DNA of 64,000 nucleotides from an uncultured Armatimonadetes bacterium (GCA_963716175.1 OY970296.1:1888001-1952000), one strand, 5' to 3'; counted from the first letter of the stretch, positions 16,461 through 48,220 are shown. Notes: generated by a model from the sequence alone, not told the origin. Program-made: numbers and translations.

Positions 16461-16478
16461 CCCCCGACTCCGGCTACC

Positions 16479-17771
16479 TGTGCGGACCGGTTACATGGGT
16501 AACGGATGTGCCGAGTACATAGGTAACACTTCTACTCCGCCTTCGGGCACTCCCCTAGTGTCAGGCGTTTGATCACCTGATGGCAGAAGAGCACCTCCAC
16601 CAGGCCGTCGATATCAGTGGCGCGCACGGCCACCGGCTGACCGCGGAAGGCCTTGGAAACGGGCAGCAGACGCCCCCCGAAGTGCACCTCGCCCCCACGC
16701 TGCACCTTGCGCACCGGCAGCCCCGGCGGGTACTGGATCGGCTCCAGCTGCGCGGGGTAGGCGCGCAGGCTGGGCTGGTAGCGACTTGCCGGCACCTCCA
16801 GCGCGAGCGCCTCGTGAGGGCGCAGGAAGTTATATTGCTCCCGCCACGGATCCAGGTGCGCCTGCAGGTGCTCCCCGTCTCGCCACTGGTGCCGCGCCAG
16901 CAGCTCTCGCTGCAAGCTGCCATGGAAGCGTTCATCCTTGCCCACGGTCTGGGGATGGTAGGGCCGAGAGTGAGTCACGTATATCCCCAGCCGCATCAGC
17001 CACACCGCCAGCGCCCCATATGCGTCCGCGGCCAGATCTCCCCAGGGACCTCCATTGTCCGACAGCATCGCCTCCGGCACCCCATAGTGCCGGAAAGCGG
17101 CCACTAGCGCCGCCTGCACGGAGCACCCGTCCTGCTTGGGCAGCGCCTGCAGAGAGAGGGCAAAGCGAGAATGATCGTCCAGCACGCTCAGCACGTGCTG
17201 GGGACCCGTCTGCGTCGCTACCGGCGCCTTGAAGTCCATCTGCCAGAGGTCGTTGGGCAGTGGGCGCTCGAAACGCACCCAGGGGCGCTGACCCGCAGGC
17301 GAGTCCGCACCGATGAGCGCGTGCCGATGCAGGGTCGCGGTAATGGAGCTGGTGGCTGGCACGGGGTGGAGGCCCTGGTTGCGGAGCAGCCGGCGAAGCT
17401 TGCGGGCTCCCCAGCACGGGTGCGCCTGGCGGAGCGCCACGATTGCCTGCTGGGTGGCTGCCGGCAGTTGCGGGCGCCTCCGGTGGGGCCGGCGGGAGTG
17501 ATCCCGCAAGCCCACTTCCCCGGCCTCAGCAAAGCGATAACACCATTTGTAGCCGATCCTGGGGCTGATGCCGAAGCGGCGGCACAGATCCCGAAACGGC
17601 ACCCTCCCCTGCTGGGCGAACATCACAAACTCCCGTCGCTGCTGCTCCACGGTAACTGGCTCCCAGGGCATGGCCCCTCTCCTCTAGGAAGAGATGCATG
17701 CCTCTATAGTAACCGCTTGCCCGTTACCTATGTATCCGGTACGAGTGTTACCTATCTATCCAGTCTGTACA
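16479..17771 (-). mobile_element. IS481-family insertion sequence, copy 1 (1293 bp)
   Basis: TGT...ACA ends with repeated ACATAGGTAAC-like motifs; 5-bp target duplication CTACC (16474-16478 and 17772-17776). Confidence 0.93.
16532..17671 (-). CDS. IS481 family DDE transposase
   Basis: N-terminal HTH, WGARKL, WQMDFK, SDNG, GKDERFH, YNFLRPHEAL. Confidence 0.95.
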   Translation of the reverse strand: MPWEPVTVEQQRREFVMFAQQGRVPFRDLCRRFGISPRIGYKWCYRFAEAGEVGLRDHSRRPHRRRPQLPAATQQAIVALRQAHPCWGARKLRRLLRNQGLHPVPATSSITATLHRHALIGADSPAGQRPWVRFERPLPNDLWQMDFKAPVATQTGPQHVLSVLDDHSRFALSLQALPKQDGCSVQAALVAAFRHYGVPEAMLSDNGGPWGDLAADAYGALAVWLMRLGIYVTHSRPYHPQTVGKDERFHGSLQRELLARHQWRDGEHLQAHLDPWREQYNFLRPHEALALEVPASRYQPSLRAYPAQLEPIQYPPGLPVRKVQRGGEVHFGGRLLPVSKAFRGQPVAVRATDIDGLVEVLFCHQVIKRLTLGECPKAE

Positions 17772-17889
17772 CTACCCCCTCGGCTGGGAGTCACTACCCG
17801 GGGCTCCGTCGCGGACAGGGACATCAGCCGCGCCACGGGGCGATCTCGGAGAGACCCGCCCAGTCGGATCCTCTGTCGCTGCTCTTCTG

Positions 17890-17995
17890 CATCCTCTATG
17901 CCTCCCAGTACAGGGGTATGCACGAAGGGAGAGAAGAGCACGAGACGGGCAGTAGCGGCGGCCTGGGCGCCAGATGAGTTTCTGGACAGCAGGGG
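17890..17995 (-). mobile_element. Module B: left-end remnant of the integrase-core-type IS
   Basis: caggggtatgcacgaagggagagaa...gatgagtttctggacagcagggg is shared with 19170, 24480 and 59556. Confidence 0.7.
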
Positions 17996-18021
17996 CCCAC
18001 GTGTCGGCCCAGGGGAATACC

Positions 18022-18813
18022 ATGGACGCTATCAGTAAGGACAACCGGGAGCGCTGGAACGCTTTGGCGAATGCCAACGTGATGTACTCGGTGCCCTACC
18101 TAGACTTCACCCGTGAGAACGCCGCTGACTACGCGTATGGCTATGGCATTCTCAAGGACGTCTCCGGGAAGAGGGTCCTCTGTCTGGCCAACGGCGGCGG
18201 GCAAGCGTCGGTCGCCTTTGGGTTGCTGGGCGCTGACGTTACCGTGCTCGATCTCTCGGACGTGCAGCTCGCACGCGACCGGGAGGCGGCGCGCCATCAT
18301 GGGCTGACGGTGGAGACTGTCCAGGGAGACATGCGCGACCTGTCTACGTTCGGCACGAGCCACTTCGACGTCGTCTGGCAGCCCTACTCGCTGAACTACA
18401 GCCCCACCGTGGAACCCGTCTTCCGGGAAGTGGCCCGTGTTCTCAAGCCCGAGGGCATCTACCACGTGACCTTCGCGAATCCGTTCACACAGGCCGTGGA
18501 TGATGATAGTTGGGATGGCGAAGGATACCGCCTGCGCGGTCTCTATAGTGATGGCGAGGACATGAGCCGCTACTTCCCGACCTGGGACGTGGAGCAGTCG
18601 GACGGCTCGATCATCACGGTGGATCGCCCTCACGAGTTCCGTCACAACCTGAGCACCGTGCTGAATGCACTCGTGCAGAACGGGTTCGTCCTGCTGCACC
18701 TGAAGGAATGGATGCGCCACGCCGAGCCCCTTGAGCCTGGTTCCTGGCCCCACTTCACCCAGGCTGCCCCGCCCTGGTTCGACTCGTTCTGGCAGCTCAG
18801 CAAGGCGCGATAG
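18022..18813 (+). CDS. Class I SAM-dependent methyltransferase
   Basis: VLCLANGGGQ motif I, VLDLS, GDMRDL, RVLKPEG. Confidence 0.9.
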   Translation: MDAISKDNRERWNALANANVMYSVPYLDFTRENAADYAYGYGILKDVSGKRVLCLANGGGQASVAFGLLGADVTVLDLSDVQLARDREAARHHGLTVETVQGDMRDLSTFGTSHFDVVWQPYSLNYSPTVEPVFREVARVLKPEGIYHVTFANPFTQAVDDDSWDGEGYRLRGLYSDGEDMSRYFPTWDVEQSDGSIITVDRPHEFRHNLSTVLNALVQNGFVLLHLKEWMRHAEPLEPGSWPHFTQAAPPWFDSFWQLSKAR

Positions 18814-18993
18814 GGAAGCCCGGGCGAACTGCAACTGGCGCGCGTGGACGAACGGATGACGGCGGCGGAGACAGATCAAGAGCGAATACAGAGATGGCTG
18901 CGCTGGTGCCCAGGGCAGGAGCAGCTTCAGCTATGAAGCTGCCGAGAACTGCACGGGTACTTGGACTGTGAGCTCGTAGCCTGTGAGACCGAC

Positions 18994-19085
18994 TGCCCCT
19001 GTCAGCCGCCCGTAAGGCCGCCCCCGGGCGCCCCCGACTCCGGCTACCCCCTCGGCTCGGGGTCACTGCCTGGGGTTTCGTCGCG
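18994..19085 (+). repeat. Hairpin repeat copy 2 with left terminal arm
   Basis: tgcccctgtcagccgcccgt...; core 19036-19064. Confidence 0.9.
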
Positions 19086-19159
19086 CGTGAGACGTGACCA
19101 GCTGAGGCACGACAGCGGCCGAAGTGCTGGAGGCCCTACCCAGTCCAGTCCCGGATCGA

Positions 19160-19222
19160 CATCCTCGCCTATCCTCGGTGCCTCCCGGAACAGGGGTATG
19201 CACGAAGGGAGAGAATAGCACG
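19160..19222 (-). mobile_element. Module B partial remnant
   Basis: cctcggtgcctcccggaacaggggtatgcacgaagggagagaatagcac. Confidence 0.65.
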
Positions 19223-19378
19223 TGGGCGAGGAGGCCGGCAGTCTTCATGCATGTGATGGCGCTGGTTCTCCACTGGGTGGGGTGCACTACCGCGGTGGTC
19301 GTCCGTGAGTCCCGGGTGGCGCGTCTCATCCCATTCCCAGCGGGCCTCCACAACAAGTATGCCCTGGGGGAGGTGTTC

Positions 19379-22300
19379 ATGGTGACCAGGTACAATGTGG
19401 GAGCTGCGATACTGATGCACCTCTGTGCAGTCCTGCTGTTGACCGGATCCGCGCCAGCCGCAGCGGTGTCTGCCATATCGGTGCGTGCTATACACGACGC
19501 GGCAGAGGCGGGCAGGACCGACGCTGTCCGCCAGCTTCTGGAAGCAGACCCCAGTCTCGTCAACTGCAAGGATGTGTTCGGGGTGAGTCCTCTCCGCCGG
19601 GCGGCGGAGCATGGTCACACGGGAGTGGTCGAGCTGCTGATTGCCAAGGGCGCGGACGTCAACGCGAACGATGGGCCAAGGTCCAAGTGGACTCCCCTCC
19701 ATTATGCGGCGAAGGGGGGCCACGAGAGAGTAGTGGAGCTGCTCATCGCCAATGGCGCGGATGTCCGGGCAAGGAACTGGCTCGGCGAGACCCCACTCTA
19801 CTTGGCCGCAGAGGGCGGGCGTGAAACCATTGCCCGGTTACTTATCGCGAAGGGCGCGGACGTCCGAGCAAGGGACAGCCGGGGCACGGCGCCACTCCAC
19901 TGGGCGGCAAGGCACGGTTGGCGGGGGGTGGCAGAGCTGCTGCTCGCGAACGGGGCCGATGTCAACCCAAAGAGTGGCTCCCGCCCGTTCGAGCGACGCA
20001 GCTGGGAGGACGCGACCCCGCTGCACTTGGCTTTGGCGTACCAGCACCCCGACGTGGGCGAGCTGCTGATCGCCAAGGGTGCCGACGTTCGGGCCAAGGA
20101 TGGGTACGCCAAGACCCCGCTCCACTTGGCCGCAGAGGGCGGCTATGAGAGTATCGTGGGGTTGCTTCTCGCTAGCGGCGCCGACGTCAAGGCCAAGGAC
20201 GATGAGGGCATGACCCCGTTGCATTGGGCTCTGGAGAAGGGCCACCGCACCGTGGCCGACCTGCTGATAGCCAAGGGCGCCGACATCCGCGCAAGAGACC
20301 GCCGCGGGAGGACCCCATTGCAGTGTGCGGCAGCAGGCCGATCGGCGGAACTGGTTCAGTCGCTCATCGCCAAGGGTGCCGACGTCGGGGCCAAGGATCG
20401 CGACGGCACGACCGCGCTCCACGTGGCAGCGCAATATGGCGACAAGGAGGCGGTGGAAATGCTCCTCGCGAACGGAGCTGATGTCAACAGAAAGTGTAGC
20501 TCGCCCCCGTGGGAACGCATCGGGAGCGACGTAACCCCGCTACACTTGGCTTTGGCCTACCAGCACCCCGACGTGGGCGAGCTGCTGATCGCCTCCGGTG
20601 CAGACGTTCAGGCCAGGGACGGCGACGGCAAGACCCCACTCCACTGGGCTGCAGAGCGGGGCTACAAGGACATCGCGCAGTTGCTTATCGCAAAGGGAGC
20701 ACTCGTCAACACAGAGTGGTTCCGCCACGAATCCGACCGGGGATTCACCCTGACCTTCCGAGAGACCCCCCTGCTCCTGGCTCTCAAGAACGGCCGCCGG
20801 GACGTAGCCGAGTTACTCGTCGCCAGCGGGGCAGATGTCCGCGCAAAGGACCCCTACACCGGCGCAGCGCCGTTGCACTGGGCGGCGCTGAACGGGTGGC
20901 AGAAACTGGCCTCCCTCCTCATCGCCAAGGGCGCCGATGTCAATGCAAGGGAGAGGGACCGAGACAACCGGACACCCCTACATGTGGCCTTGGCGCGGGG
21001 CGACGCAGAGACCGCGAAGTTGCTGGTAGGCAACGGCGCTGACGTTAACGCCAGGCAAGGCGACGGCACCACCCCGCTGCACCTAGCGGCAGGAAAGGGC
21101 TCAAGGGAAGTGGCGGAGATACTGGTCGCCAAAGGTGCCGATCTGAACGCAAAGGATAGCAGCGGCCGGAGCGCCCTACACTTGGCCCTATCTGCTGCCC
21201 ACGTGGAGGTGGCGAAACTGCTCGTCACCAGTGGCGCTGAAGTCAGTGCCAGGGCCAAGGATGGCACCACCCCGCTGCACCTGGCAGCAGGAAAGGGCTC
21301 AAGGGAAGTGGCAGAGATGCTGCTCGCCAGGGGCGCGCCGGTCAGCAGCCGGGGCCCCCACAGGACTACCCCACTCCACTGCGCGTCATGGGCCGGGCAG
21401 AAGGAGATCGTGGAGTTGCTTCTCGCTAGCGGCGCCGACGTGAATGCCAAGGACGATTGCGATATGACGCCGCTGCATGAGGCGGCCAAGCGCGGCCAGG
21501 TGGAGGCAGGCGAGTTGCTCATTGCCAAAGGCGCCGACGTCCACGCACAGGCCACCAGCGTTGTCTTCGTGGAGGAGAAGACACACAGAAACGCGATCCA
21601 GGACTTCCTCGCAGGGCTTCTACATGACTGGACTGTTGGGGAAATACTGGGGCCCGTTACCAGCGCGCCACCAGCAGAGGTGTCCGCCTCACCCAGAGAT
21701 CGCAGTGTTGCCAGCCTCCCGATTGTCGCTGCCCCGTACATGCAGCCGCCTCCTCCTGATGAACCGGAGACCGAGACCCACTGGGAGGAACGCACCGTCC
21801 ATGGGATCACGCCGCTTCACCTTGCGGCCGAGGCCGGGCAGCGAGAGATGGTGGGGTTGCTGATCGCTCATGGTGCCGACCCAGATGCAACAGACAGTGA
21901 GGGGCGACCTCCGCTGGCGCTAGCGGTATCCCGCGGCCACGCTGGGGTAGTCGAGCTGCTGAGTGGGCATTTGTTCCTGCTCCAGGCCAACCAGACAACT
22001 GTTGTCCGCCTAAGCTACAACGCGAGTCGCCCACTCATCGACGGGCTACTCGACGAACCGTTCTGGAAGCAAGGCCCGCCTCTTGTCTCTGCGCTTGACG
22101 TCTTGTCGACGGGTCAGTCAGAGCGTGGAGGGCTTCGCTCAGAAGCGTGGCTGGGTGCTGACCGCCAGTGGCTCTACATCGGCGCGCGCTGCGGCATCGC
22201 GGAAGGCGCTGCGCTCCGCAGGCCGAAGGGCGACTTCGATGCGCCAGGACTGGGTGACGACTCGCTTGAGGTGTTTCTCGTGTCGCCAGCGGGTGGCAGC

Positions 22301-22504
22301 ACTGACTTCCAGCTCCTCGTTGGTGCCAATGGCGCTCCATTCAGTATGACCGCGTCTGCGGCGGTCGCGCTGAACCCGCGCATCGCGACGGCGGTCTCGC
22401 GGGGAAAGGCGTCGTTCGACATCGAGATCAGGATTCCGTGGTCGGAGATCGGTGAGCCGGACAGTGCCGAGTCGAGTCTTGGTGTTGCAGTTCTGCGCCG
22501 GTGA
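19379..22504 (+). CDS. Secreted ankyrin-repeat protein (over 20 repeats) with C-terminal CBM9/DOMON-like domain
   Basis: Signal peptide, many TPLHxAA...GADV repeats, C-terminal IDGLLDEPFW...DDSLEVF...EIRIPW; GGAGG SD before ATG 19379. Confidence 0.88.
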   Translation: MVTRYNVGAAILMHLCAVLLLTGSAPAAAVSAISVRAIHDAAEAGRTDAVRQLLEADPSLVNCKDVFGVSPLRRAAEHGHTGVVELLIAKGADVNANDGPRSKWTPLHYAAKGGHERVVELLIANGADVRARNWLGETPLYLAAEGGRETIARLLIAKGADVRARDSRGTAPLHWAARHGWRGVAELLLANGADVNPKSGSRPFERRSWEDATPLHLALAYQHPDVGELLIAKGADVRAKDGYAKTPLHLAAEGGYESIVGLLLASGADVKAKDDEGMTPLHWALEKGHRTVADLLIAKGADIRARDRRGRTPLQCAAAGRSAELVQSLIAKGADVGAKDRDGTTALHVAAQYGDKEAVEMLLANGADVNRKCSSPPWERIGSDVTPLHLALAYQHPDVGELLIASGADVQARDGDGKTPLHWAAERGYKDIAQLLIAKGALVNTEWFRHESDRGFTLTFRETPLLLALKNGRRDVAELLVASGADVRAKDPYTGAAPLHWAALNGWQKLASLLIAKGADVNARERDRDNRTPLHVALARGDAETAKLLVGNGADVNARQGDGTTPLHLAAGKGSREVAEILVAKGADLNAKDSSGRSALHLALSAAHVEVAKLLVTSGAEVSARAKDGTTPLHLAAGKGSREVAEMLLARGAPVSSRGPHRTTPLHCASWAGQKEIVELLLASGADVNAKDDCDMTPLHEAAKRGQVEAGELLIAKGADVHAQATSVVFVEEKTHRNAIQDFLAGLLHDWTVGEILGPVTSAPPAEVSASPRDRSVASLPIVAAPYMQPPPPDEPETETHWEERTVHGITPLHLAAEAGQREMVGLLIAHGADPDATDSEGRPPLALAVSRGHAGVVELLSGHLFLLQANQTTVVRLSYNASRPLIDGLLDEPFWKQGPPLVSALDVLSTGQSERGGLRSEAWLGADRQWLYIGARCGIAEGAALRRPKGDFDAPGLGDDSLEVFLVSPAGGSTDFQLLVGANGAPFSMTASAAVALNPRIATAVSRGKASFDIEIRIPWSEIGEPDSAESSLGVAVLRR

Positions 22505-22704
22505 GAGCAGTGGCACCATGGACTCAGCCCGTGCCATCCGGAAGGTCATCCGTGAGGCTGTGTCAGCAGGCGGCAACGTTCAGAGGGTGCAGGTCGCACT
22601 AGCCACGGCCTGGCGCCAGAGACGTCGGTGCGCCACGCTCTCACGGCAAGACAGGCGCTCTAGATCACTGCGCTCCAGATTCAGCCGTTCGAGCCAGGAC
22701 CCCC

Positions 22705-22783
22705 TGTGCGTGTTAAGCAGACTTGGGACATCGGTTGGGCGACGCAACTGGTGCCCTCACCCGACGGATGATGGCAAGACCGT
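22705..22783 (+). mobile_element. Module C IS-end remnant
   Basis: tgtgcgtgttaagcagacttgggaca...gatggcaagac. Confidence 0.6.
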
Positions 22784-23041
22784 TGGTACATGCGCGGGGA
22801 TCGCTTGCACAACGACCAATCTCAGATCCCTTGTTGACGAGCGCCGTGGTGGAGCCTAACATGCGCACCGAGAGTCCGCCCAACCTTACACTACGGTTGG
22901 GACATGGTCTCACACTGAATCCGGGCCATAATGCATGAAGTAGTCTCAAGGCCACACCGGGCAGCAGTAGTCGCTGCTGGATGACGTGTGGGACGTGATC
23001 TTCACGGGCCCTGCACTGTGCTGTTGAGGGAGGCAGAGGGC

Positions 23042-24034
23042 ATGCGGAGGACAATGCTGTGTGCTATGCTGGTAGTTGTCGCGGCCGTCGGGATTGCCGC
23101 AGGTGGCGCGCCCGGCGTCCGATTGGGTGCCGCCGTGAAGAGGAGGAATGGCGCTCTGGTGTTGCCCTTGGAGCGGCTCGCGCCCGGCCTTGGGCTGAAG
23201 GTCTCCTACGACTCGAAGAGCCAGACGATCAGTGTCAGCAAGGGCGCTTGGAGCGCCATCGCCAGAGCGAACACTAAGAAGGCCCAAGCAGCGGGGAAGG
23301 CAGTCGAACTGCCTACGGCTCCGTGGGTCGAATTCCGGAGGAGGTCGCGGGTTACCATGGTTCCCGTGGCCCTGATAGCAACGGAGATGCTCTGGCAGGG
23401 CGGAGTTCTGCCGGACAGTATCTCCGTGAAGTCGGGACGACCCTCAGCGCCTTTTGCCGCATTTGTGCCGTTGTTCGATGAGGGGCGGGAAGCTACGATC
23501 GTGTTCTACTCCTTGGCAAGCGGCAAGCCCGTTCTCTCAGCACGTTACATCGTTCCCGGCCCGGAATCCGCGACGGAGCAACAGCCAATGGGCAAGCTCG
23601 CCATCAATACGTCGGGCCTCAGTGAGAGGGAGGAGAAGTACAGGAGCATACGTGGCGGCTTCGGTGGCAACACTGGTGTCACCGCCCTCGGTGAGTATCT
23701 GCGCAGGGAAGGGTCAGGGGCAGTCGACCTGGGAACGGACCTTGTTTCCAGCTACAGCCAGTGGGAATCCGGGATGAAGCTGGTGAAACGAGGAAAGGAT
23801 CAGGTCCTGGCCATCCAACTGTCAGTGCTGGTCGGGATCGCAGAGAGACGGGGGCAGAAGCTGAGTGTATCGGGCCTTGCTGGCGACGTGGGCAAGCGCC
23901 CCGATGCTATGTACACGGCGCGATTCGAGGGCAATACCATAAAGGTGTCGAGCGCTACAGCGGGTGTTACGTTCAGGTTGGGCAAAGAGGGCGGAGAGCT
24001 CAGCCCCAAGATTCTCTCGGTCTGGGTACTGTAG
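23042..24034 (+). CDS. Secreted protein with copper-amine-oxidase N-terminal (stalk)-like domain
   Basis: Signal peptide; LPLERLAPGLGLKVSYD...ELPTAP...TMVPV pattern. Confidence 0.6.
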   Translation: MRRTMLCAMLVVVAAVGIAAGGAPGVRLGAAVKRRNGALVLPLERLAPGLGLKVSYDSKSQTISVSKGAWSAIARANTKKAQAAGKAVELPTAPWVEFRRRSRVTMVPVALIATEMLWQGGVLPDSISVKSGRPSAPFAAFVPLFDEGREATIVFYSLASGKPVLSARYIVPGPESATEQQPMGKLAINTSGLSEREEKYRSIRGGFGGNTGVTALGEYLRREGSGAVDLGTDLVSSYSQWESGMKLVKRGKDQVLAIQLSVLVGIAERRGQKLSVSGLAGDVGKRPDAMYTARFEGNTIKVSSATAGVTFRLGKEGGELSPKILSVWVL

Positions 24035-24213
24035 CCCGTGTGAGGAACCGCCTCTGGCACTCTCCCATTCATGGTTGAACACCAGCAAGGGGCGGCTCTC
24101 CCCAGCTGGGTTCGCGGTGGCCTCGGGCGGTTTGGTGGAACCTGGCACCGCAATCCTGGACGATAGCAGAGAACTGCCGTAAGCGAAGATCACCACATTG
24201 CGGGCCGATAGGA

Positions 24214-24587
24214 TACCCGTGCTATCCAGAAACTCATCGGCGCGGTCCAGATCAGATGGAGGCACCCATTCGGTCGTGGGATAACGGATGATGAGGGGAG
24301 ACCATCTCGCCTCGGAATGGATGACACAGTCGCGACCTGGCACCTCTGACAGCGCGACCGGCCCGCAGACCCGCGAATGCGCCCCGCGCACATCCGCTCT
24401 CCAGGCGCAAGTACTCGTTCTGAAACGTTAGTTCCCGGCACAACAGCCGCGCCACGGTCGCGATCACAGGCATCCCCGCCCATCCTCAGCGCCTCCCAGC
24501 ACAGGGGTGTCAACGAGCGCAGAGAATACCACCCATGGGCTCTGCAGGGGCTCTGAGAGCCAGATAGGTTTTCGGATGGCGCGGGTA
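24214..24587 (-). mobile_element. Internally deleted mini-IS (MITE-like, about 374 bp) of the integrase-core-domain type
   Basis: Imperfect IRs tacccgtgctatccagaaactcatc / gataggttttcggatggcgcgggta; transposase N-terminal stub PVIATVARLLCRELTFQNEYLRLE. Confidence 0.75.
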
Positions 24588-24619
24588 CACGCGGCGCCAC
24601 GAGACGAGAGAGTCGAAGA

Positions 24620-26365: not shown

Positions 26366-26518
26366 CCGCCGCCGGGCGCGCCGCCAGCGGGGGCGGAGGG
26401 TGGAGCGTTCATGCCCAAGGGGCAGTCGGCGAGAGTGATCGTAGAGGGAGTCGGCCTGGTCCACCAGGACCGCGGACAGGACCGGCCCCTCGTTCTTATT
26501 CACGGCTCTGGATGTCCA

Positions 26519-26598
26519 CCGCTCGTGAAGCCGGCCTCAGGGCACCTCTCGACTCCGGCTGCCCCCTCGGCTGGGAGTCAGGTCTGGGGTTCCGTTGC
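26519..26598 (+). repeat. Hairpin repeat copy 3
   Basis: ccgctcgtgaagccggcctcag arm; core 26551-26579. Confidence 0.9.
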
Positions 26599-26706
26599 GT
26601 ATGCGGCTGATCCGAGCCCGCACGCAGGCTGATGAGCTGTCGGAGATCCGCGGTCCCATGAGCCTATGACAAGGGGCGCATACTCTACAGGGGTGGCCGC
26701 GCAGGA

Positions 26707-29022: not shown

Positions 29023-29110
29023 GTAGACCTCCAATCGCTCACGAACGATCACGCGTGGGCGCCGATCCGACGTGGGGCTTCCGCAGGTGATCGCGGCAGA
29101 CGTTCCCAGC

Positions 29111-29466
29111 ATCGAACTCCCAGACCTCGCCCGTTGGTGGAGAGTTTCTGTGTCTAGGCCTGTTTCCCCCACCATTCGCGAGTAGAACCCTCGTCTGAAG
29201 GCGGGGAATGCTCCGATCACCTTGGGACTACAGCGCGGTTTCAATTCTCACTGCCTCACCCAAACGCGCCCCTCATTGAAACGGGGAATCCGTCCACAGC
29301 CGGAGAGAGTTTCGTTCTCAGGAACGTTTCCTCCACCTCCTGTAAACCAGAAGCCAAGTCTCGTCTACAGCTGCAGAGAGTGTCTGATCCCAGGTCAGTC
29401 TCCCCCCGCCATGGTCCCGTTCCGGCAGGACCGCCGCCCACCCCGCCGAAGCATCCCGTGTGGTCG
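29111..29466 (+). repeat. Module A tandem units plus linker
   Basis: Homologous to 6630-6860 and 16311-16460. Confidence 0.85.
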
Positions 29467-29530
29467 CCCCAGGCACCCCCGACTCCGGCTACCCCCTCGG
29501 CTGGGAGTCATTGCCCGGGGTCTCGTCGCG
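29467..29530 (+). repeat. Hairpin repeat copy 4, the uninterrupted equivalent of the IS481 target
   Basis: Core 29481-29509; outer stem ccccaggca/tgcccgggg. Confidence 0.92.
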
Positions 29531-29721
29531 TGTGGCGGACGCGGTTGGCAGGATGCTCGTACCCTCGACCATCACTCCATGTGCCGCGACGATCCCCCAT
29601 GGCTGCCAGCGTGTGCTCGCCACCTCGGACAAGGCTGTGCGGGCCAGTGCTCTCGATGTGGTATGCCTGCTACGAGCAGAGTGCCACGCCACACTCGAAG
29701 GCACAGCAAGGAGGCCGTGGG

Positions 29722-34901: not shown

Positions 34902-35017
34902 GCTGCGCGGCCAGACGAGGGTCCTTCGCGCCGCTCACTGCGAGGGCCAGGCGCCTTCCCTCCACTCTCCGCCGCTCTCGACACGGAGCCCCGGCGTCCC
35001 TGACTGAGGCCGTCTTC

Positions 35018-35956: not shown

Positions 35957-36026
35957 AACCAACTCCTTTGCTGGCGCGCCCAGGCCGCGGTTCGGGTGGC
36001 CAAGGCCTCCTGTTCTCGCCGCGAGC

Positions 36027-37499: not shown

Positions 37500-37635
37500 A
37501 GTCGCGCGATCCCGGAACCGACGTCCTCGACTCCGTAGTTCGTCAGCGCTCGGGCACACCCTCTGTTCGGCGGCCCCGCCCGCGCCCGCCACCGCGCCCC
37601 AACCACGGATCGGCCGCGCCCTGCCTCCCGATCGG

Positions 37636-38300: not shown

Positions 38301-38359
38301 AGTGTCCGCACTACCTTCCCCTCCCCCCTGAACACGGGTGCCCAGCCTTCCTCGTGCGC

Positions 38360-38832
38360 TCACCGGTCTGTGAGCTCCGGCAGGTACCTGGCTATGCGCT
38401 CGCGGATGACGCCGAGGTGGTGGTCGGGGAAGTCGTCGTTCACAGCGACTCCGGCCAAGGGGAGCCGGTTCTCGGCGAACAGCGCGATTCGCCAGATTTG
38501 GCGGGCGACGATGAACCACCGGATGCCTTCCCGAGTCGCCCCGGAGAGAGCGCGGATCTCCTGGTACCCCCGGCAGAAGGCTTCCCACTGCGCATCCTCT
38601 CTGCAGTACAGCCGGCAGACGGAGAGGTCGTAGGCGCGCCAGCCCGGGCCGCCGCAGTCGAAGTCGAAGACGCGTAGGGTGCCATCGGCATCCTGACGGG
38701 CATTGCCGCCGTGGAAATCGCCATGGCAGAAACCCCACTCCAATCCGCCGAGCTGCGGCTCCAGTCCGGCGCGCAGCTCGCCGGCCACCAACTCAACGAA
38801 GGCCGCATCGGCAGGACGGTGCGCCAGGTAGG
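38360..38832 (-). pseudogene. C-terminal fragment of APH/homoserine-kinase-like phosphotransferase
   Basis: HGDFHGGN and FDFD motifs; the N-terminal part is replaced by the IS110 stub. Confidence 0.7.
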
Positions 38833-39004
38833 GGAGGATCCCAGGTCGTGTACTTCTCCGCTCGCAGGATCGAAGCAACCCATCCGAGAAAAACGCTGGT
38901 GTACGTCCAGTCCAATCCAGATCATCGTCGGTCTCCTCCTGATGAGAGTGTTTGTACTTCGAGCACCTTTCAACACCAACAGGGGGAGACCGTCTTATGA
39001 TAGT
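38833..39004 (-). mobile_element. IS110/IS1111-family left end plus about 29 codons of transposase
   Basis: AGGAGG SD, ATG 38925, MIWIGLDVHQRFSRMG (DEDD RuvC N-terminus); short left end with ataagacggtctccc. Confidence 0.75.
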
Positions 39005-39007
39005 CAA

Positions 39008-39224
39008 CCGCTCGTGAAACCGGCCTGAGGGCACCCTCGACTCCGGCTACCCCCTCGGCTGGGAGTCAGTGGTCGGGGTTTGGTCGCCATGCAGGCAAGC
39101 GCACTGCCCAACGCGAAAGCGGCGCCCGAAGGCGCCGGACCCTGGCTTCAGATGATACAGGAGTAGGACCGCGCTCTCAACCCTAGCGTGCACTCAGGCC
39201 GGTTTCACGGGCGGGTGAGAGGCA
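39008..39224 (+). repeat. Hairpin repeat copy 6 with both terminal arms
   Basis: ccgctcgtgaaaccggcctgag (39008) pairs with ctcaggccggtttcacgggcgg (39193); core 39039-39067. Confidence 0.9.
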
Positions 39225-39467
39225 CACCCTGGAGCGGTACGGTGCGGGGCAGACCGTCCTGACGCCCTACCACTGGAGGGGGTTCGGCTTCCGGGGCGAA
39301 TGGACGGGTGACCCAATCGGCGCCGCCTCTGGTCTAACAGCAGACGACAACGACGACGGCGGCGTAGAAGACGAGGTTGGGGTTTCTGTCGGCGGTCGCC
39401 GACTGTCATACGTCTTTCGGGACGGCGGCTGTGTCCCCGTCGCCAGTACGTGTGAGGGGAGGAAGAG

Positions 39468-41603: not shown

Positions 41604-41618
41604 TCCTCCGGCGATTGC

Positions 41619-41710
41619 TGTGGATGTCAAGTAGGCTTGGGACACCAGGCTGGGAGTCTGGATCGTGTTCTGCGCCTGACGGATGACAGCAGGACGGTGG
41701 GGGTGGCCGG
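41619..41710 (+). mobile_element. Module C IS-end remnant
   Basis: tgtggatgtcaagtaggcttgggacacc...ctgcgcctgacgg. Confidence 0.6.
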
Positions 41711-41901
41711 GTCGAGGGGACAGGACCGCGGTAGACGCGGTGACGCGCGCCGGGCTGCGAAGTGACACCGGTCGCGGTCGGCAGGGAGGTCAGGCGGCGA
41801 GCCGTTAGCCGGTGATCCGGGTATCGGCGAAGACGCAACCCTCGATAGTGGCTGGCAGTGTCCTGGCTGACTTCTCCGGCCTGCTCCGCTCTTCTTCGTG
41901 T

Positions 41902-42065
41902 GCGACGCCCCCGGGCACCCCCGACTCCGGCTACCCTCGGCTTGGAGTCATTGTTCGGGGTTTCGTCGCGGACCATCTGCTGCCGGCATTCCTAGACACG
42001 CGGCCAGACGCACCCCGGTTGGAGGCGTGATGTCAGGCCGGCTTCACGGGCGTCTGACAGGGGCA
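41902..42065 (+). repeat. Hairpin repeat copy 7 with right terminal arm
   Basis: Core 41923-41949; ends tcaggccggcttcacgggcgtctgacaggggca. Confidence 0.9.
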
Positions 42066-42141
42066 AACAGGTGCTAACATGCGGAGGTTGAGACCGGGCC
42101 CCAACCACCGCACATCACCGACACCACAGTCGGTGGCGCGG

Positions 42142-43206
42142 CTACGGAGTCTTGTAGGCGCTCAGGTCCAACACCACGGGATAGCCGCTGTTTTCCTTCA
42201 GCGTCAGGCTCTTCAGAGCAACGCCCTTGGGGACCGAGAACGCCAGGCGGAACTTGATGGAATCTCCCTGCTTCACGCTTGGCTCGAAGCGTCGGTTTGA
42301 GCTGGCCGGCATGGGGCCGTACTGGATCTCGTAGCTCACCCCATCGGCGTCCTTCAATGCCATTCCCGAGGTAGGAGATCCGCTGCCACCCAGCCCGCTC
42401 GACCCCTCGCCGAAGTACTTGCACTCAAAGGTAGCCACAACGTAATCATTGTTCGCGTCATAGCCTTCGTCGGCGAACGGAGGTGTGGCGAAATCCACCT
42501 TCTCCACCTTGGTGTCGAAATTGCCGGTGGTGTAGAAAACGCCGAACGCGCCGGGAATCACCTTCGCCACCGTCGCTCCCGTCTGGTCGCTCGGATCGGC
42601 ATACGGCGCCGCCAGCGGCTTCACCTTGCCGTGCAAGTCGTAGCGCGCGACCGGCGTGCCCGCGTCCGCGTGGTTGGCCGCCATCAGCTTGGGCACGGCC
42701 CCCTCTCCCGCCACGCGGATGACCGCAAACACTTCGATCTTCTGCGCCGGCTTCATCGCCTGGTCGAGCGTCTTGTGCGTCTGGTCGTCCACCCCGACGC
42801 CCAGGTACTCCTGATTCTTGTTTTGGCTCTTGGCGTCCACCGCGGTCCAGGAGATGGTGCTGTAGTCCACGTGCTGTTCCCGCGGGAGCGGGTTGTGGAG
42901 CGTGTAGTGGATAACAAGGAGCTTCTCCCCTTCGTTGGGCCAGAAGAAGCGGTCCCCTACCTTTACGTGCCCCACCGTGTACTCGGCGCTCTTCAGAGTC
43001 AGGTTCATGGCGTCGGCCTTCCCGAGGGTGTAGGCCTTGCCCAGATCACACCACTCCCCGGGCAACTGGGAGGTGCCAATGGAGCCGAGTTTGGGCTTCG
43101 GCTTCGCCCTGGTCGGGGTCGGTTTCTTGGCCGCCAGTGACGCGGCGGCTGTGCCCAAGAGGACTACGAGCATGAAAAGCGACAGACTGCTACATCGGCG
43201 CTTCAC
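42142..43206 (-). CDS. Secreted hypothetical protein with two DUF4352-like beta-sandwich domains
   Basis: AAGGAG SD plus GTG 43206, signal peptide, two similar beta-rich halves. Confidence 0.6.
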   Translation of the reverse strand: MKRRCSSLSLFMLVVLLGTAAASLAAKKPTPTRAKPKPKLGSIGTSQLPGEWCDLGKAYTLGKADAMNLTLKSAEYTVGHVKVGDRFFWPNEGEKLLVIHYTLHNPLPREQHVDYSTISWTAVDAKSQNKNQEYLGVGVDDQTHKTLDQAMKPAQKIEVFAVIRVAGEGAVPKLMAANHADAGTPVARYDLHGKVKPLAAPYADPSDQTGATVAKVIPGAFGVFYTTGNFDTKVEKVDFATPPFADEGYDANNDYVVATFECKYFGEGSSGLGGSGSPTSGMALKDADGVSYEIQYGPMPASSNRRFEPSVKQGDSIKFRLAFSVPKGVALKSLTLKENSGYPVVLDLSAYKTP

Positions 43207-43257
43207 TCTGTTTCTCCTTTGCCATGTTGATGCCGAACGCACGACTTCGGGGGCCCG

Positions 43258-43358
43258 TAGTGTACCAAGACAGATCTGAGGCATCCAGAAAGCCAAGGGC
43301 CTCGGTTCCTGGGCACCGTCGGGGTTGACTTCTCGGCGCGGGCGCGGCATCCTGCGTG
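43258..43358 (+). repeat. Module D: IS-end-like repeat (inverted copy at 62167-62264)
   Basis: agtgtacca..a.gatctgaggcatcca.a.agcc...cctcggttcctg.gcacc.tcggggttg.cttc. Confidence 0.65.
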
Positions 43359-43502
43359 TCTCGGCCCCCATAGGGCCGTCCTGGGCGGGTTCTGGGCTTG
43401 CGCCGGCTGACTCCCTCCCCTACCATCTGGGGCCGGTAGGCGGTGCCTTCGGGTGCCGCCCAATGCCCAGGCGTCAGCACGCGTGGAGACCATTGCGGAT
43501 GT

Positions 43503-43662
43503 CCCCGTACACCCCCGACTCCGGCTACCCCCTCGGCTCGGAGTCACGGCCCGGGGCTCAGTCGCGTAGCGTCGAGCTGGGGCTCTTCCCGGACACGCGG
43601 GTCACGCCTTTCCGGCTAGCGGCGTGATGTCAGGCCGGCTCCGCGGGCGCTTCACAGGCACA
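43503..43662 (+). repeat. Hairpin repeat copy 8 with 3' half
   Basis: Core 43517-43545; gctcttcccggacacgcgggtcac...gtgatgtcaggccggct. Confidence 0.9.
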
Positions 43663-43956
43663 GCTGGGCTTACCGTCGGGGTGCCGCCCGCGTGCGGCCA
43701 GTTGCTCAGCTAACCTCCGCCGTGCTAGAGACCTCCGAGGCCGGCTTCACGGGCGCTCGACACCCACACCCGGGCCTACGGCGTTGGCCGGCGCCGGCCG
43801 GCGCCGGAATGCTGGCATACCGGGACGAGTACAACAACTACCCCCACAATGACGGCGGGATCTCGGAGGAGGGGCCGTACACCCTCGCGGTGAACGCGCC
43901 GAAGAAGGCCGGGTATTGAGAGGGGACGTCGGGCTCCCAGTGACAATGGGGACAGG

Positions 43957-45198
43957 CTAGGTCCGGTAGGCCTCCCGCAGCGACTCGCTGAAGGCGTTGA
44001 CAGCGTAGTCGATCTCGTCGTTGGTGTGGGCGACGGATTCGTACATGACGGGGTAGGGGATGATGCCGCGGCGGTAGAGGCCGCGGAAGAGTTCGGTCTG
44101 GTACGCGCCCGGGTCGCGGCGGCTGGAGTCGCCAGCGCCTTCGTCCGGGGCGAATATCATCTGCGGGCAGACCGGGAGCCCGACCATGCGGAAGGGGATG
44201 CCCTGGCGGGCTGCCGCTTCGTTGACGCCGGTTTGCAGACGTTCGGCTAGCTGCCAGAGCCGGCCAATGACGTCCTGATCGCGGTAAATGCTGAGCACGA
44301 CTTCCGCGGCGGCGAGGGAAACCGCTTCTCCACCGTACGTGATGGAAATACTGGGCCACTGCTCCATAATATCGCGGCGGCCGGTGACGGCGGCGAGGGG
44401 ATAACCGTTGGCGATGCCTTTGGCGAAGGCGGCGAGGTCGGGGACGACGCCGAAGTACTCGTGAATCCCCCCGCGGCGGACGCGAAACCCGGTGACGATC
44501 TCATCGACGACGAGCAGGACGCCATAGCGCTGGGTGAGCGCGCGGACGTCGGCCAGGAACGGATCGCCCGGGCGCATGGCCGCGTAGTCGCCGGAGATGC
44601 AGACGCAGGCCGTTTCGCTCCCATGGGCCTTGAGGTACTCGGCGTAGGCGTCAGTACGGCCATAGGGAAGATTGACGAAGAGCGCGCGCAGGGCAGCGGG
44701 CTGCGTGTCGTCCATATTCAGGCCCCAGCCGTGGTAGCCGCAGGTGACGACGCGATCCCGGTGAGTGAAGTGGCGAGCCACTCTGGTCGTCGCGTGCATG
44801 GCCTCGCCACCGCCCTTGAAGAAGCGCACCATCTCCGCACAGGGCACGAGATCGATCATGAGCTTGGCGACGCGGCGTTCAAGGTCGACCGGCAGCGACG
44901 TGACGACAACGCGGTCGATCTGCTCTTTTGCGGCTCTGTTAACCTCCGGATGGCAGTAACCGAGGGTGATGGGGCCGCAGCTCAGTCGGAAGTCGATGTA
45001 CTCGTTGCCGTCGATGTCCCAGACACGGCTGCCGTGAGCCCGGTCGATCTGGGCCGGCTGGTCGTCTGACAGTGCTGCAGAGGGGCGCTTGGAGCTTGTG
45101 CCTGTGCCCCAGGGAAGCACCTGGCAGGCCTCGCGGTATTGCTGCCAGGAACGCTGTACTCCATGCTGCCGACTTCCGAGGCGTGACAGACCACTCAT
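43957..45198 (-). CDS. Class III PLP aminotransferase (GSA-aminomutase-like)
   Basis: WDIDGNEYID, LVVDEIVTGFR, PDLAAFAKGIANGYP. Confidence 0.88.
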   Translation of the reverse strand: MSGLSRLGSRQHGVQRSWQQYREACQVLPWGTGTSSKRPSAALSDDQPAQIDRAHGSRVWDIDGNEYIDFRLSCGPITLGYCHPEVNRAAKEQIDRVVVTSLPVDLERRVAKLMIDLVPCAEMVRFFKGGGEAMHATTRVARHFTHRDRVVTCGYHGWGLNMDDTQPAALRALFVNLPYGRTDAYAEYLKAHGSETACVCISGDYAAMRPGDPFLADVRALTQRYGVLLVVDEIVTGFRVRRGGIHEYFGVVPDLAAFAKGIANGYPLAAVTGRRDIMEQWPSISITYGGEAVSLAAAEVVLSIYRDQDVIGRLWQLAERLQTGVNEAAARQGIPFRMVGLPVCPQMIFAPDEGAGDSSRRDPGAYQTELFRGLYRRGIIPYPVMYESVAHTNDEIDYAVNAFSESLREAYRT

Positions 45199-45337
45199 GC
45201 TATCCTCCATCCGGTAATGCCCAGCATAGATGACACCTGATCTCAGCTTCTACTTGAACCTCAAGGCCACCCGGGAGCATGGGTGTCCGCTCCACACGTC
45301 AACAGGGCCGCCGTTCGCCCTCGCAAACTATCCTCGC

Positions 45338-45502
45338 CGACGGCCCCGGGCAGCCTCGACTCCGGCCACGCCCTCGGCTGCGAGTCACGGCCCGGGTTTC
45401 GTCGCGGGTCGTCGAGCGAGGGCTCTTCCCGGACACGCGGGTCACAGCCTTTCGGTTGGCGGCGTGATCTCAGGCCGGCTTCACGGGCGCTTCACAGGCA
45501 CA
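45338..45502 (+). repeat. Hairpin repeat copy 9 with 3' half
   Basis: Core 45358-45386; 3' half near-identical to 43580-43662. Confidence 0.88.
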
Positions 45503-45557
45503 TGGGTGTTCATCTCAGCCCGGCGCCTCTCATGTCGCCAGCAGCCTGCACTGCAGC

Positions 45558-46603
45558 CTAGTCCCAGGCGAGCCCCGGCGCTTGCGGCAGGTTCACGCAG
45601 CCGTCCTCCAGCTTCATCGGAGAATCGGCCGATAGCAGTCCCAGTTCCACGTACAGCGCGTTGGGCAGACAGGCCATCACGTTCATCTGCGCCGCCTCAC
45701 CGCCGTGCGAGGCATAGGGTCGCCGGAACGCGTCCGCCATCAGCCCGATCTGCAGCAGCGCCGTGGGCCCGCCCGCGCGCCGCAGGTCGGGCTGCACGAT
45801 GTCAACCGCGTTGTGGCGCAAGAAGCGTGCGAAATCGTGCTTGGTATACAGGTTCTCACCTGTCGCCACCGGGATGTCAAGCGCTTCGGCCAGTGCCGCG
45901 TACCCATCCACGTCCTGCGCCGGGAGTGGCTCTTCCCACCAGTAGCAGCCCAGGTCCTGGAAGGCCCGGCCTCGTCTGATCGCTTCCGCCGTCGTGAGCG
46001 CCTGATTCGCGTCCACCATGAGCCGCGTCTCGCCACCCACCGCGCGGCGCACCAGCTCGACGCGCTTCACATCCTGCTGCAGCGTTTCGAAGCCCACCTT
46101 GATCTTCACCGCGCGATAGCCTTGTTCGACGGCACGAGCACAAACGCGCTGCACCTTATCATCGGAGTAGTTCAGCCAGCCGACCATGGCATAAGCGGGG
46201 ATGCGGTCGTGCACCGCCCCCCACAGCTTCCAACACGGGACTCCGTGCGCTTTGCCCAGGCAATCCCAGAGCGCGGTGTCGACCGCGGCTATCCCCCACA
46301 TGGCCAGGCCGAACGATCCGTGGTACTCGGTTTCGCGCAGCATCGCCTCGTGGGTGGCCCGCACCATCGTCGGGTCGGTTCCGAGCGCCACCGGCGCGAG
46401 CTCGCGCTCGACCAGCGCCGCCAACGTCTCCGGCCCGCCCACGATGCGGCCGAAGTACACATCTCCTCGCCCCGCGATCCCCTCGTCGGTCTCGATGCGC
46501 ACCTCCACCGTCCCCGCGCCCCCCAGCACCTGCAGTGCATCGCGAAGGGGGTCAGGGGCGGGGGACGGGGGTGAGGCACGGCGTTGATCTTCGTGACCTT
46601 CAT
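45558..46603 (-). pseudogene. Mandelate racemase/muconate-lactonizing enzyme family gene, frameshifted near its 5' end
   Basis: SD plus ATG 46603 (MKVTKINAV) is out of frame with the body (KIKVG, MVDANQ, WWEEP, ATGEN, QPD); span 1046 bp is not a multiple of 3. Confidence 0.7.
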
Positions 46604-46792
46604 CTCCCAGTTCCTCCCAACGCAGCCCCCAGCGCTCGACCATCGTGATGTACTGAAACTGATCTGGGGGTTTCTTCGGCAGGTGCCGAGCGGGACCTGC
46701 CCTCTCGCGTGGTTGGTGGGTCAGGTTTCGGATGGCTCGCGCATCGCCGAAACGGAGTCGACGGCGCCCGGCCACCCCCAACTCCGGCTCCC

Positions 46793-48085
46793 TGTGCGGA
46801 CCGGTTACATGGGTAACGGATGTGCCGAGTACATAGGTAACACTTCTACTCCGCCTTCGGGCACTCCCCTAGTGTCAGGCGTTTGATCACCTGATGGCAG
46901 AAGAGCACCTCCACCAGGCCGTCGATATCAGTGGCGCGCACGGCCACCGGCTGACCGCGGAAGGCCTTGGAAACGGGCAGCAGACGCCCCCCGAAGTGCA
47001 CCTCGCCCCCACGCTGCACCTTGCGCACCGGCAGCCCCGGCGGGTACTGGATCGGCTCCAGCTGCGCGGGGTAGGCGCGCAGGCTGGGCTGGTAGCGACT
47101 TGCCGGCACCTCCAGCGCGAGCGCCTCGTGAGGGCGCAGGAAGTTATATTGCTCCCGCCACGGATCCAGGTGCGCCTGCAGGTGCTCCCCGTCTCGCCAC
47201 TGGTGCCGCGCCAGCAGCTCTCGCTGCAAGCTGCCATGGAAGCGTTCATCCTTGCCCACGGTCTGGGGATGGTAGGGCCGAGAGTGAGTCACGTATATCC
47301 CCAGCCGCATCAGCCACACCGCCAGCGCCCCATATGCGTCCGCGGCCAGATCTCCCCAGGGACCTCCATTGTCCGACAGCATCGCCTCCGGCACCCCATA
47401 GTGCCGGAAAGCGGCCACTAGCGCCGCCTGCACGGAGCACCCGTCCTGCTTGGGCAGCGCCTGCAGAGAGAGGGCAAAGCGAGAATGATCGTCCAGCACG
47501 CTCAGCACGTGCTGGGGACCCGTCTGCGTCGCTACCGGCGCCTTGAAGTCCATCTGCCAGAGGTCGTTGGGCAGTGGGCGCTCGAAACGCACCCAGGGGC
47601 GCTGACCCGCAGGCGAGTCCGCACCGATGAGCGCGTGCCGATGCAGGGTCGCGGTAATGGAGCTGGTGGCTGGCACGGGGTGGAGGCCCTGGTTGCGGAG
47701 CAGCCGGCGAAGCTTGCGGGCTCCCCAGCACGGGTGCGCCTGGCGGAGCGCCACGATTGCCTGCTGGGTGGCTGCCGGCAGTTGCGGGCGCCTCCGGTGG
47801 GGCCGGCGGGAGTGATCCCGCAAGCCCACTTCCCCGGCCTCAGCAAAGCGATAACACCATTTGTAGCCGATCCTGGGGCTGATGCCGAAGCGGCGGCACA
47901 GATCCCGAAACGGCACCCTCCCCTGCTGGGCGAACATCACAAACTCCCGTCGCTGCTGCTCCACGGTAACTGGCTCCCAGGGCATGGCCCCTCTCCTCTA
48001 GGAAGAGATGCATGCCTCTATAGTAACCGCTTGCCCGTTACCTATGTATCCGGTACGAGTGTTACCTATCTATCCAGTCTGTACA
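46793..48085 (-). mobile_element. IS481-family insertion sequence, copy 2 (1293 bp)
   Basis: Same ends and identical ORF translations as copy 1; target duplication CTCCC (46788-46792 and 48086-48090). Confidence 0.93.
46846..47985 (-). CDS. IS481 family DDE transposase
   Basis: 379 aa, identical to 16532-17671. Confidence 0.95.
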   Translation of the reverse strand: MPWEPVTVEQQRREFVMFAQQGRVPFRDLCRRFGISPRIGYKWCYRFAEAGEVGLRDHSRRPHRRRPQLPAATQQAIVALRQAHPCWGARKLRRLLRNQGLHPVPATSSITATLHRHALIGADSPAGQRPWVRFERPLPNDLWQMDFKAPVATQTGPQHVLSVLDDHSRFALSLQALPKQDGCSVQAALVAAFRHYGVPEAMLSDNGGPWGDLAADAYGALAVWLMRLGIYVTHSRPYHPQTVGKDERFHGSLQRELLARHQWRDGEHLQAHLDPWREQYNFLRPHEALALEVPASRYQPSLRAYPAQLEPIQYPPGLPVRKVQRGGEVHFGGRLLPVSKAFRGQPVAVRATDIDGLVEVLFCHQVIKRLTLGECPKAE

Positions 48086-48220
48086 CTCCCCCCTCGGCTG
48101 GAGTCGCTGCCTGGGGTTCGGTCATGGATAGTGGTCAGAACCGCGGGTCATTCTGCACTGGCCCGGGTCAGAGCAAGGCTGCGGCGGTCTCAGGGCGAAA
48201 TGACTACTTCAGGAGGTCTT

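Follow-up and report, generated by a model that had tools for sequence, protein, structure and literature searches.

Several families of bacterial insertion sequences (ISs) place themselves in the repetitive extragenic palindromic (REP) sequences of their hosts. The main text of Tobes and Pareja (2006, PMC1525189) lists such targeting in the IS3, IS110, IS4, IS256 and IS5 families, and IS481 is absent from that text. Experiments cited there implicate the transposases of IS1397 and ISKpn1 themselves in specificity, and the target of these elements is described as duplex DNA read on both sides of the staggered cut (PMC1525189). The IS110-family members IS621, ISPpu9, ISPpu10 and ISPa11 appear in the same article as strict REP occupants (6/6, 7/7 and 7/7 copies tabulated) that lack terminal inverted repeats and a typical target duplication. 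Our literature searches, ISfinder and the supplements of PMC1525189 aside, found no report of palindrome, REP or hairpin targeting by IS481, ISRm20 or ISEc19, nor any article that deals with how ISRm20 or ISEc19 choose their targets. Here we describe an IS481-family element that occupies one nucleotide position of a multi-copy palindromic repeat in the genome of an uncultured Armatimonadetes bacterium. Two of its copies lie in a stretch of 64,000 nucleotides (GCA_963716175.1 OY970296.1:1888001-1952000; hereafter the window), which is part of a single 4.56-Mb contig with 66% G+C. An earlier note, made from the sequence of the window, had proposed that this element targets the repeat and had named IS1397/ISKpn1 and IS110 members as documented cases of REP targeting.

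The element resembles each of the described systems in part. Like IS1397 and ISKpn1, IS3-family elements found in the loops of enterobacterial REP sequences and bacterial interspersed mosaic elements (BIMEs), it encodes a transposase of the DDE (Asp-Asp-Glu) type with an rve core, here from a sister family, and it inserts in the loop of a repeated host palindrome with a short duplication, with nearly all copies in the repeat. Unlike these two, whose transposase is made from two open reading frames (ORFs) joined by a frameshift, it has a single-ORF transposase, which scores 105 bits with the IS3 model NF033516 against a cut-off of 160; its host repeat is also unrelated, and two close lineages use two sites about 15 bp apart within it. 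It shares the end motif TGT...GG with ISRm20 of Sinorhizobium meliloti and ISEc19/yagA of Escherichia coli, whereas the identity to them is only about 45-48%. The targets of ISRm20 and ISEc19 are short simple hairpins with insertion at the dyad, whereas the site described here is off-centre in a composite repeat of 150 bp. With IS481 from Bordetella pertussis and ISLxc2 from Leifsonia, type members of the family, it has in common the family model, its size class, a single ORF and the TGT at its ends. The ends and the target of ISLxc2 are tabulated in PMC2516522, where the target is given as NCTAGN; elements of this type duplicate 6 bp at it. In contrast to this type of target, the duplications found here are 5 bp long, read CTACC or CTCCC without a CTAG, and lie inside a specific repeat. 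The IS110-family REP occupants have an enzyme of an unrelated class, and the likeness to them is in behaviour alone. As in REP targeting, all four full copies of the element lie at one nucleotide, and fragments and relics are found in the same repeat of about 100 copies. We regard the targeting by this IS481 element as a solid extension of known REP-targeting behaviour, and not as a new kind of system.

Four copies at one nucleotide of a host repeat

The earlier note had reported two identical 1293-bp copies in the same orientation. A blastn comparison confirmed that they are letter-identical over this length (coordinates in Table 1), and the whole-genome search raised the number of full copies to four (three at 100% and one at 99.92% identity), plus two fragments. 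The two further full copies are at genome positions 1973971-1975263 (100%) and 1725520-1726812 (99.92%, opposite strand), and tblastn of the genome found no further close copies.

Members of the IS481 family have terminal inverted repeats starting with TGT and make a short direct target duplication. Both ends of our element start with TGT and form imperfect inverted repeats that match at 19 of 25 positions, and a 5-bp duplication is present at 4/4 copies. The transposase gene is the sole long ORF of the IS that is consistent in G+C content at third codon positions (GC3), and it is a single frame with no frameshift. Its product scores 261.2 bits over the full length of the NCBIfam IS481 model NF033577 (cut-off 224), which upholds the family named earlier, and falls under the cut-off of each of the IS3, IS21 and IS630 family models. 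The Pfam domains rve, rve_3, HTH_28, HTH_32 and LZ_Tnp_IS481 were found in it. Residues D146, D205 and E247, the putative catalytic triad by their motifs, are invariant across 12 aligned sequences (the transposase and 11 relatives). Because of the model score, the domains and these invariant residues, the element looks like an intact IS481-family insertion sequence that is potentially active.

All four full copies break the repeat after GGCT[A/C]CC, at one nucleotide and in one orientation relative to the repeat, with duplications of CTACC, CTCCC, CTCCC and CTACC (5 bp each). The duplications that had been claimed for the two copies in the window, CTACC and CTCCC, were both read there. DNA folding places the duplicated bases at positions 3-7 of a 17-nt loop that is closed by the 6-bp stem GACTCC/GGAGTC. 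The insertion point is inside this loop, 2 nt off the stem, and not at the stem-loop junction where the earlier note had put it. The empty-site equivalent that the note had seen elsewhere in the window is indeed an uninterrupted core, GACTCCGGCTACCCCCTCGGCTGGGAGTC.

On both sides, the flanks of all four copies diverge less than 20 bp away from the junction, and past the repeat they have nothing in common; each duplication pair matches its own host repeat. Segmental duplication is therefore excluded by the divergence of the flanks, and gene conversion is very improbable. These comparisons support four independent insertions, in line with what had been argued for the two copies in the window. 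The roughly 100 copies of the repeat make up about 0.3% of the 4.56-Mb genome, yet the four insertions share one position, which excludes chance. Insertion into this pre-existing repeat is non-random, independent and position-specific. All copies of the IS are intergenic.

The middle base of the duplicated pentamer may differ between empty and occupied sites. Of 80 uninterrupted repeats, 61 have A there, 15 have G, 2 have T and 1 has C, whereas C is found in 2/4 occupied sites (Fisher p = 0.005). The element may prefer CTCCC, a mere hint that comes from four events.

A second position in the same repeat

Two old fragments of the IS (genome 1041492-1041763 and 1058742-1058889), about 90-93% identical to it, border the repeat in inverted orientation, with junctions at GGAGT of the 3' stem arm or beside it. 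At three loci, including window position 61195, a solo stretch of about 20 nt that resembles an IS end occupies the same place in the 3' arm, in direct orientation. We also found a sister lineage on metagenome contigs, with four copies at 83-85% protein and about 88% DNA identity. The copies with readable flanks (L118, L130 and L140) all occupy the 3'-arm site of this repeat family, and both orientations occur among them; L131 has no flank and is outside this 3/3 count. The duplications of the sister lineage are inexact, and its junctions are placed at or next to GGAGT, not to the base. The positions used by the full-copy lineage and the sister lineage are about 15 bp apart in one repeat.

Together, the IS group accounts for at least nine insertion events in the repeat, and we saw none elsewhere. 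The repeat targeting proposed in the earlier note is thus borne out by 4/4 full copies, both fragments, the three solo-end relics and the 3/3 informative copies of the sister lineage.

A segment of 757-890 bp that starts at such a solo stretch occurs three times in the genome at 94-98% identity (window 61195-62075; genome 2026274-2027030 and 2258969-2259858). It begins with the IS-end-like stretch of about 20 nt after the 3' arm of one repeat and ends in the next repeat. Its gene, at window 61286-61867, encodes a small signal-peptide protein with Gly/Arg-rich ends. The segment may be a cassette that was mobilised through recombination between repeats or through one-ended transposition.

Relatives of the element insert in palindromes

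The best relatives in species-representative genomes have 44-55% identity and belong to many phyla. The nearest named relatives, from a plasmid collection, are ISRm20 (48%) and ISEc19/yagA (44% amino-acid identity), over 98-99% of the protein. Both end motifs were found in 72 of 80 relative loci, and 59 distinct sites from 23 genomes were left after removing elements outside 1255-1310 bp, flanks of less than 35 nt and duplicate sites. A perfect stem of at least 6 bp was present at 42/59 sites, compared with 241/1201 positions drawn at random from these loci (Mann-Whitney p = 9e-19), and in 19 of the 23 genomes such stems hold half or more of the sites. The sites also follow a common composition: positions -15 to -10 are occupied by C in 36-43 of the 59 sites, and G occupies +11 to +15 in 37-47 of them. 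A C-rich left flank is combined with a G-rich right flank at 40/59 sites, and the converse is found at 0/59. As a palindrome is the same on both strands, this 40-to-0 ratio marks the class of palindrome, one with a C-rich 5' arm, and not the orientation of the element.

The duplications of the relatives measure 5 bp at 23 sites, 6 bp at 11, 7 bp at 3 and 3-4 bp at 3, and are inexact at 19. At some sites without a duplication the flanks come from oppositely oriented hairpins, as expected of IS-mediated inversion. The target palindromes were tested in three genomes and are multi-copy in each, with 14, 51 and 15 matches (control 0). In the one copy of ISRm20 that we read, the duplicated CTCGT forms the loop between the arms of a 9-bp stem, ATCCCTGTG/CACAGGGAT. 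The left end of ISEc19/yagA on an E. coli K-12 F' plasmid (L090) adjoins the palindrome CCCCTCTCCCC-TTT-GGGG, which is of the C-run class; the right-end motif had no match in this plasmid record, and the right flank is unreadable there.

The same pattern was found in metagenomes. Both ends were present in 41 of 80 metagenome loci, 13 of which were dropped for short flanks, leaving 28 sites. Stems of at least 6 bp were found at 20/28 sites (18/26 without L174 and L179, which are considered below), and the C-left/G-right arrangement at 22/28, with the converse at 1/28. Comparing the flanks of all genomic copies and of their homologues, the check that the earlier note had put forward, places the element's own copies all in the repeat and the relatives mostly in palindromes. 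Palindrome targeting is thus not peculiar to this element, as relatives of about 50% identity share it. Because relatives in many bacteria likewise occupy their hosts' palindromic repeats, the targeting is best read as inherited target choice.

An apparent empty allele in metagenomes

The part of the window from 46300 to 48600, which holds copy 2, is partly present in 20 public runs from 17 studies, four of which were aligned at 90% likeness. In X4 and X6, two runs from different studies, one contig each joins position 46787 to 48086. The joint omits 1298 bases, that is, the IS and one duplication, and 5 letters at it fit either side; the shorter side of the joint spans 57 and 77 letters, respectively. 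It looks like a precise empty allele of the copy 2 site. In both runs the contig depth over the IS is several-fold above that of the flanks, the IS differs at many positions (95-99% likeness), and loose ends where the IS stops continue into other flanks. These other flanks indicate that the element or close kin of it is present elsewhere in these communities. A contig of run X1 leads from the IS end into a repeat half and continues as the flank of the fourth copy. The Logan contigs of X1 end 2 nt short of the left IS end of copy 2, where the junction is unbridged. Variants of the IS are common in sediment and wetland metagenomes beyond the source genome.

The host repeat

The unit of the host repeat is about 150 bp long and intergenic, whatever the strand of the neighbouring genes. 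An nhmmer profile built from 62 core matches gave 105 matches, which correspond to about 100 loci after merging split halves. Nearly all of them cluster within 0.72-2.82 Mb, the single match outside being at about 2.9 kb. Cumulative GC skew is lowest near 1.14 Mb. Left of this minimum 22/24 matches are on the minus strand and right of it 72/81 are on the plus strand, so that 94/105 are consistent. The strand flip at the GC-skew minimum indicates that the repeat is oriented with the presumed direction of replication. The repeat can be described as a replication-oriented, origin-side family.

Among 80 full repeats, the loop is the best conserved part (GGCTACCCCCTCGGCT, 16 nt), and the stems are mostly retained. 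Compensatory change in the stems is nearly absent, with few double changes among 20 proposed pairs in the 80 copies, and the folding energy is no better than that of shuffled sequence (z = +1.8 to -1.0).

A 22-nt core of the repeat, searched with at most 2 mismatches, occurs 58 times in this genome and 39 and 10 times in the two sister-genus genomes. It was found 0 times in 38 other relatives searched, and the reversed control also gave 0. Full-length IS DNA is present in this genome only of the 41 searched, the other 40 giving short weak matches of 24-74 nt. Since the sister genus has the repeat and not the IS DNA, the repeat is older than the IS and independent of it. The gene beside the site aligns at 75-76% in the sister genus, and the alignment ends before the intergenic region.

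Other readings of the repeat were weighed. The genome has five Y1_Tnp matches, each 71 kb to 1.2 Mb from the nearest repeat, which disfavours a family made by REP-associated tyrosine transposases (RAYTs) or a REP doublet forming hairpins (REPIN). An array of integron attC sites was rejected, since the genome has no integron integrase (the best match to the model TIGR02249 scores 90 bits against a cut-off of 265) and genes on both strands lie between co-oriented repeats. Rfam gave 0 matches at the gathering score in the 64-kb window. The repeat is also variable in its left part. About 95 bp upstream of the hairpin core are near-identical between the repeat that holds IS copy 1 (16383-16478) and the empty one (29400-29495), and other repeat copies carry different left modules, for example ...GTCAACCGCCCGTGAAGCCGGCC.... 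The shared and differing left modules indicate that the repeat is a mosaic of modules, like BIMEs.

How the target may be chosen

We consider it highly probable that the machinery of this IS481 element picks GGCT[A/C]CC^, a short asymmetric site within the loop of a pre-existing host palindromic repeat. The transposase or transpososome itself would make the choice, reading double-stranded target DNA on both sides of a staggered cut. Relatives from many phyla are found in repeated palindromes of their hosts, with a C-run about 10-15 bp before the site and a G-run about 11-15 bp after it. The element would gain a harmless intergenic landing site in about 100 copies. The conserved targeting in relatives of about 50% identity gives indirect support to the idea that the specificity may reside in the transposase. 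Recognition of bases is favoured over recognition of a hairpin because the site is off-centre, the orientation is single, the relatives follow a rule of composition and there is no structural signal. The earlier note had proposed that an IS481 member recognises the sequence or the structure of the repeat; targeting of the repeat is supported, and what is recognised may be either of the two.

Several observations weigh against this reading. The exact site rests on just 4 events here, and the common orientation alone has a chance of 1 in 8. A weight matrix made from the 59 relatives' sites gives the four sites of this element 0-3 bits, compared with 10.7 +/- 5.9 bits for the relatives and -10.7 +/- 6.7 bits for random genome sites. 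Slid over 62 repeats, the matrix has its top scores within the core hairpin, and the two used positions rank 11th-27th of 220 position-strand combinations, with optima 3-4 nt away. As the used sites are not top-ranked, the rule of the clade does not pinpoint the site of this element. For these weak scores and ranks, a unifying C-run/G-run model drawn from the relatives was rejected and is retained as a loose likeness: the lineage shares the habit of inserting between the C-run and the G-rich run of a palindrome, with an exact site of its own. Further, 19/59 relatives' sites are without an exact duplication. The empty joints were found at 90% likeness and the target is a repeat family, so that a contig may stem from another copy of the repeat. 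At L174 and L179 the flanks are exact reverse complements over 38 nt, and these loci are possible assembly chimeras that raise the stem count. Lastly, the chooser could also be a host protein or a DNA structure rather than the transposase. Regarding the reverse-complementary flanks, L172, L175, L183, L185 and L193 show them too, with no direct duplication; the match at L174 and L179 covers non-palindromic sequence, where chimeras are probable, and inversion between opposed hairpins fits the shorter cases.

If a structure were recognised and not a sequence, the target would be an extruded hairpin or cruciform, or a hairpin on single-stranded DNA at the replication fork. The relatives' targets vary in sequence and share palindromy (42/59 with perfect stems of at least 6 bp), and 94/105 repeat matches are oriented alike relative to the presumed leading strand on either side of the GC-skew minimum at about 1.14 Mb, both of which would fit such a mode. 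However, the repeat folds no better than shuffled sequence, its stems have almost no compensatory change and the 'loop' is its best-conserved part. Insertion is also off the dyad centre and in one orientation in all four copies, and the strict composition of the relatives' sites (C-rich 5'/G-rich 3' arm at 40/59, the converse at 0) points to the reading of bases. Recognition of structure therefore seems unlikely to us. One form of it, in which the transposase reads a single-strand hairpin of the repeat formed during replication and not duplex sequence, is doubtful to the same degree; we keep it in view because the repeat is strand-oriented, the insertions have a single orientation and palindrome use is clade-wide (ISRm20/ISEc19-like). 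If this were true, an rve-type DDE transposase would act as a replication-coupled integrase guided by structure. To our knowledge, such logic has so far been tied to HUH (His-hydrophobic-His) transposases (IS200/IS605) and integron attC sites. Some transposons use bound host factors for tethering, and a host protein bound to the repeat might tether the transpososome, the repeat being first a protein-binding site and then an IS target. The loop sequence is more conserved than the stems in the 80 copies, the repeat is common to the sister genus and, save for one match, it is confined to the region around the GC-skew minimum, which would suit a functional binding site. The relatives, however, use unrelated palindromes with the C-run/G-run layout in at least 23 genomes and many phyla, and a property borne by the element is simpler than a separate host tether in each phylum. 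A tether is thus quite improbable.

Two further explanations were considered. One insertion could have spread by homologous recombination, gene conversion or segmental duplication, without transposition, and the identity or near-identity of the copies and the homology of about 70 bp that the repeat halves provide on each side are compatible with this. We find it extremely unlikely, since the flanks part so close to both junctions in all four copies, the surroundings beyond the repeat are unrelated, and the duplication pairs fit their own repeat variants where conversion would have brought the donor flank along. Alternatively, insertion could be random with survival only in harmless intergenic repeats, or the copies could be assembly artefacts. 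All copies are indeed intergenic, and identical repeats of 1.3 kb are well known to cause misassembly. But single-nucleotide precision with matching duplications is beyond the reach of selection, the genome is in one contig, independent metagenome contigs show the IS ends and a precise empty allele, and the X1 contig connects the IS end, through a repeat half, to the flank of the fourth copy. These observations leave very little probability to either.

Our results suggest that a large IS481 subclade (ISRm20/ISEc19-like, 23 genomes, many phyla) places itself in host palindromes with the C-run/G-run layout. The two lineages, 12% apart in DNA and at two positions in one repeat, form a natural matched pair that would be useful for learning how an rve-type DDE transposase reads its target. 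The targeting would also be a simple explanation for the persistence of such elements without gene damage.

Features in the window

The IS copies, their target-site duplications and the copies of the host repeat in the window are collected in Table 1. A DUF1559/N-methyl protein, which is compatible with an origin from the Armatimonadota, is also encoded in the window.

Table 1. Coordinates of the IS copies and host repeats, counted from the first nucleotide of the window.
Feature	Position	Strand	Remarks
IS copy 1, IS481 family	16479..17771	transposase on minus strand	identical to copy 2 and to genome 1973971-1975263
Transposase gene, copy 1	16532..17671	-	379 aa; N-terminal HTH_28/HTH_32, rve core, D146/D205/E247 as candidate DDE residues
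Terminal inverted repeat, transposase-distal end	16479..16503	+	TGTGCGGACCGG...; 19/25 positions equal to other end
Terminal inverted repeat, transposase-proximal end	17747..17771	-	TGTACAGACTGG... on minus strand
Target-site duplication, left, copy 1	16474..16478	+	CTACC
Target-site duplication, right, copy 1	17772..17776	+	CTACC
IS copy 2	46793..48085	-	identical to copy 1
Transposase gene, copy 2	46846..47985	-	
Target-site duplication, left, copy 2	46788..46792	+	CTCCC
Target-site duplication, right, copy 2	48086..48090	+	CTCCC
Host repeat, left half, interrupted by copy 1	16404..16478	+	nhmmer; genome 1904404-1904478
Host repeat, right half, interrupted by copy 1	17772..17839	+	nhmmer; genome 1905772-1905839
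Host repeat, right half, interrupted by copy 2	48087..48161	+	nhmmer; genome 1936087-1936161
Uninterrupted repeat, empty-site equivalent	29420..29566	+	nhmmer, folding; core hairpin 29481-29509, core GACTCCGGCTACCCCCTCGGCTGGGAGTC
Uninterrupted repeat	18977..19124	+	nhmmer
Uninterrupted repeat	26499..26618	+	nhmmer
Uninterrupted repeat	38986..39133	+	nhmmer
Repeat, partial match	41897..41973	+	nhmmer
Uninterrupted repeat	43489..43615	+	nhmmer
Uninterrupted repeat	45300..45454	+	nhmmer, folding
Uninterrupted repeat	51881..51995	+	nhmmer
Uninterrupted repeat	53548..53688	+	nhmmer
Uninterrupted repeat	57673..57794	+	nhmmer
Uninterrupted repeat	59389..59516	+	nhmmer
Repeat with solo IS-end-like stretch	61139..61239	+	3' arm (after GGACT), then from 61195 TGTGCGGACCGGATAC
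Uninterrupted repeat	61971..62083	+	nhmmer
Repeat copy	63745..63837	+	nhmmer

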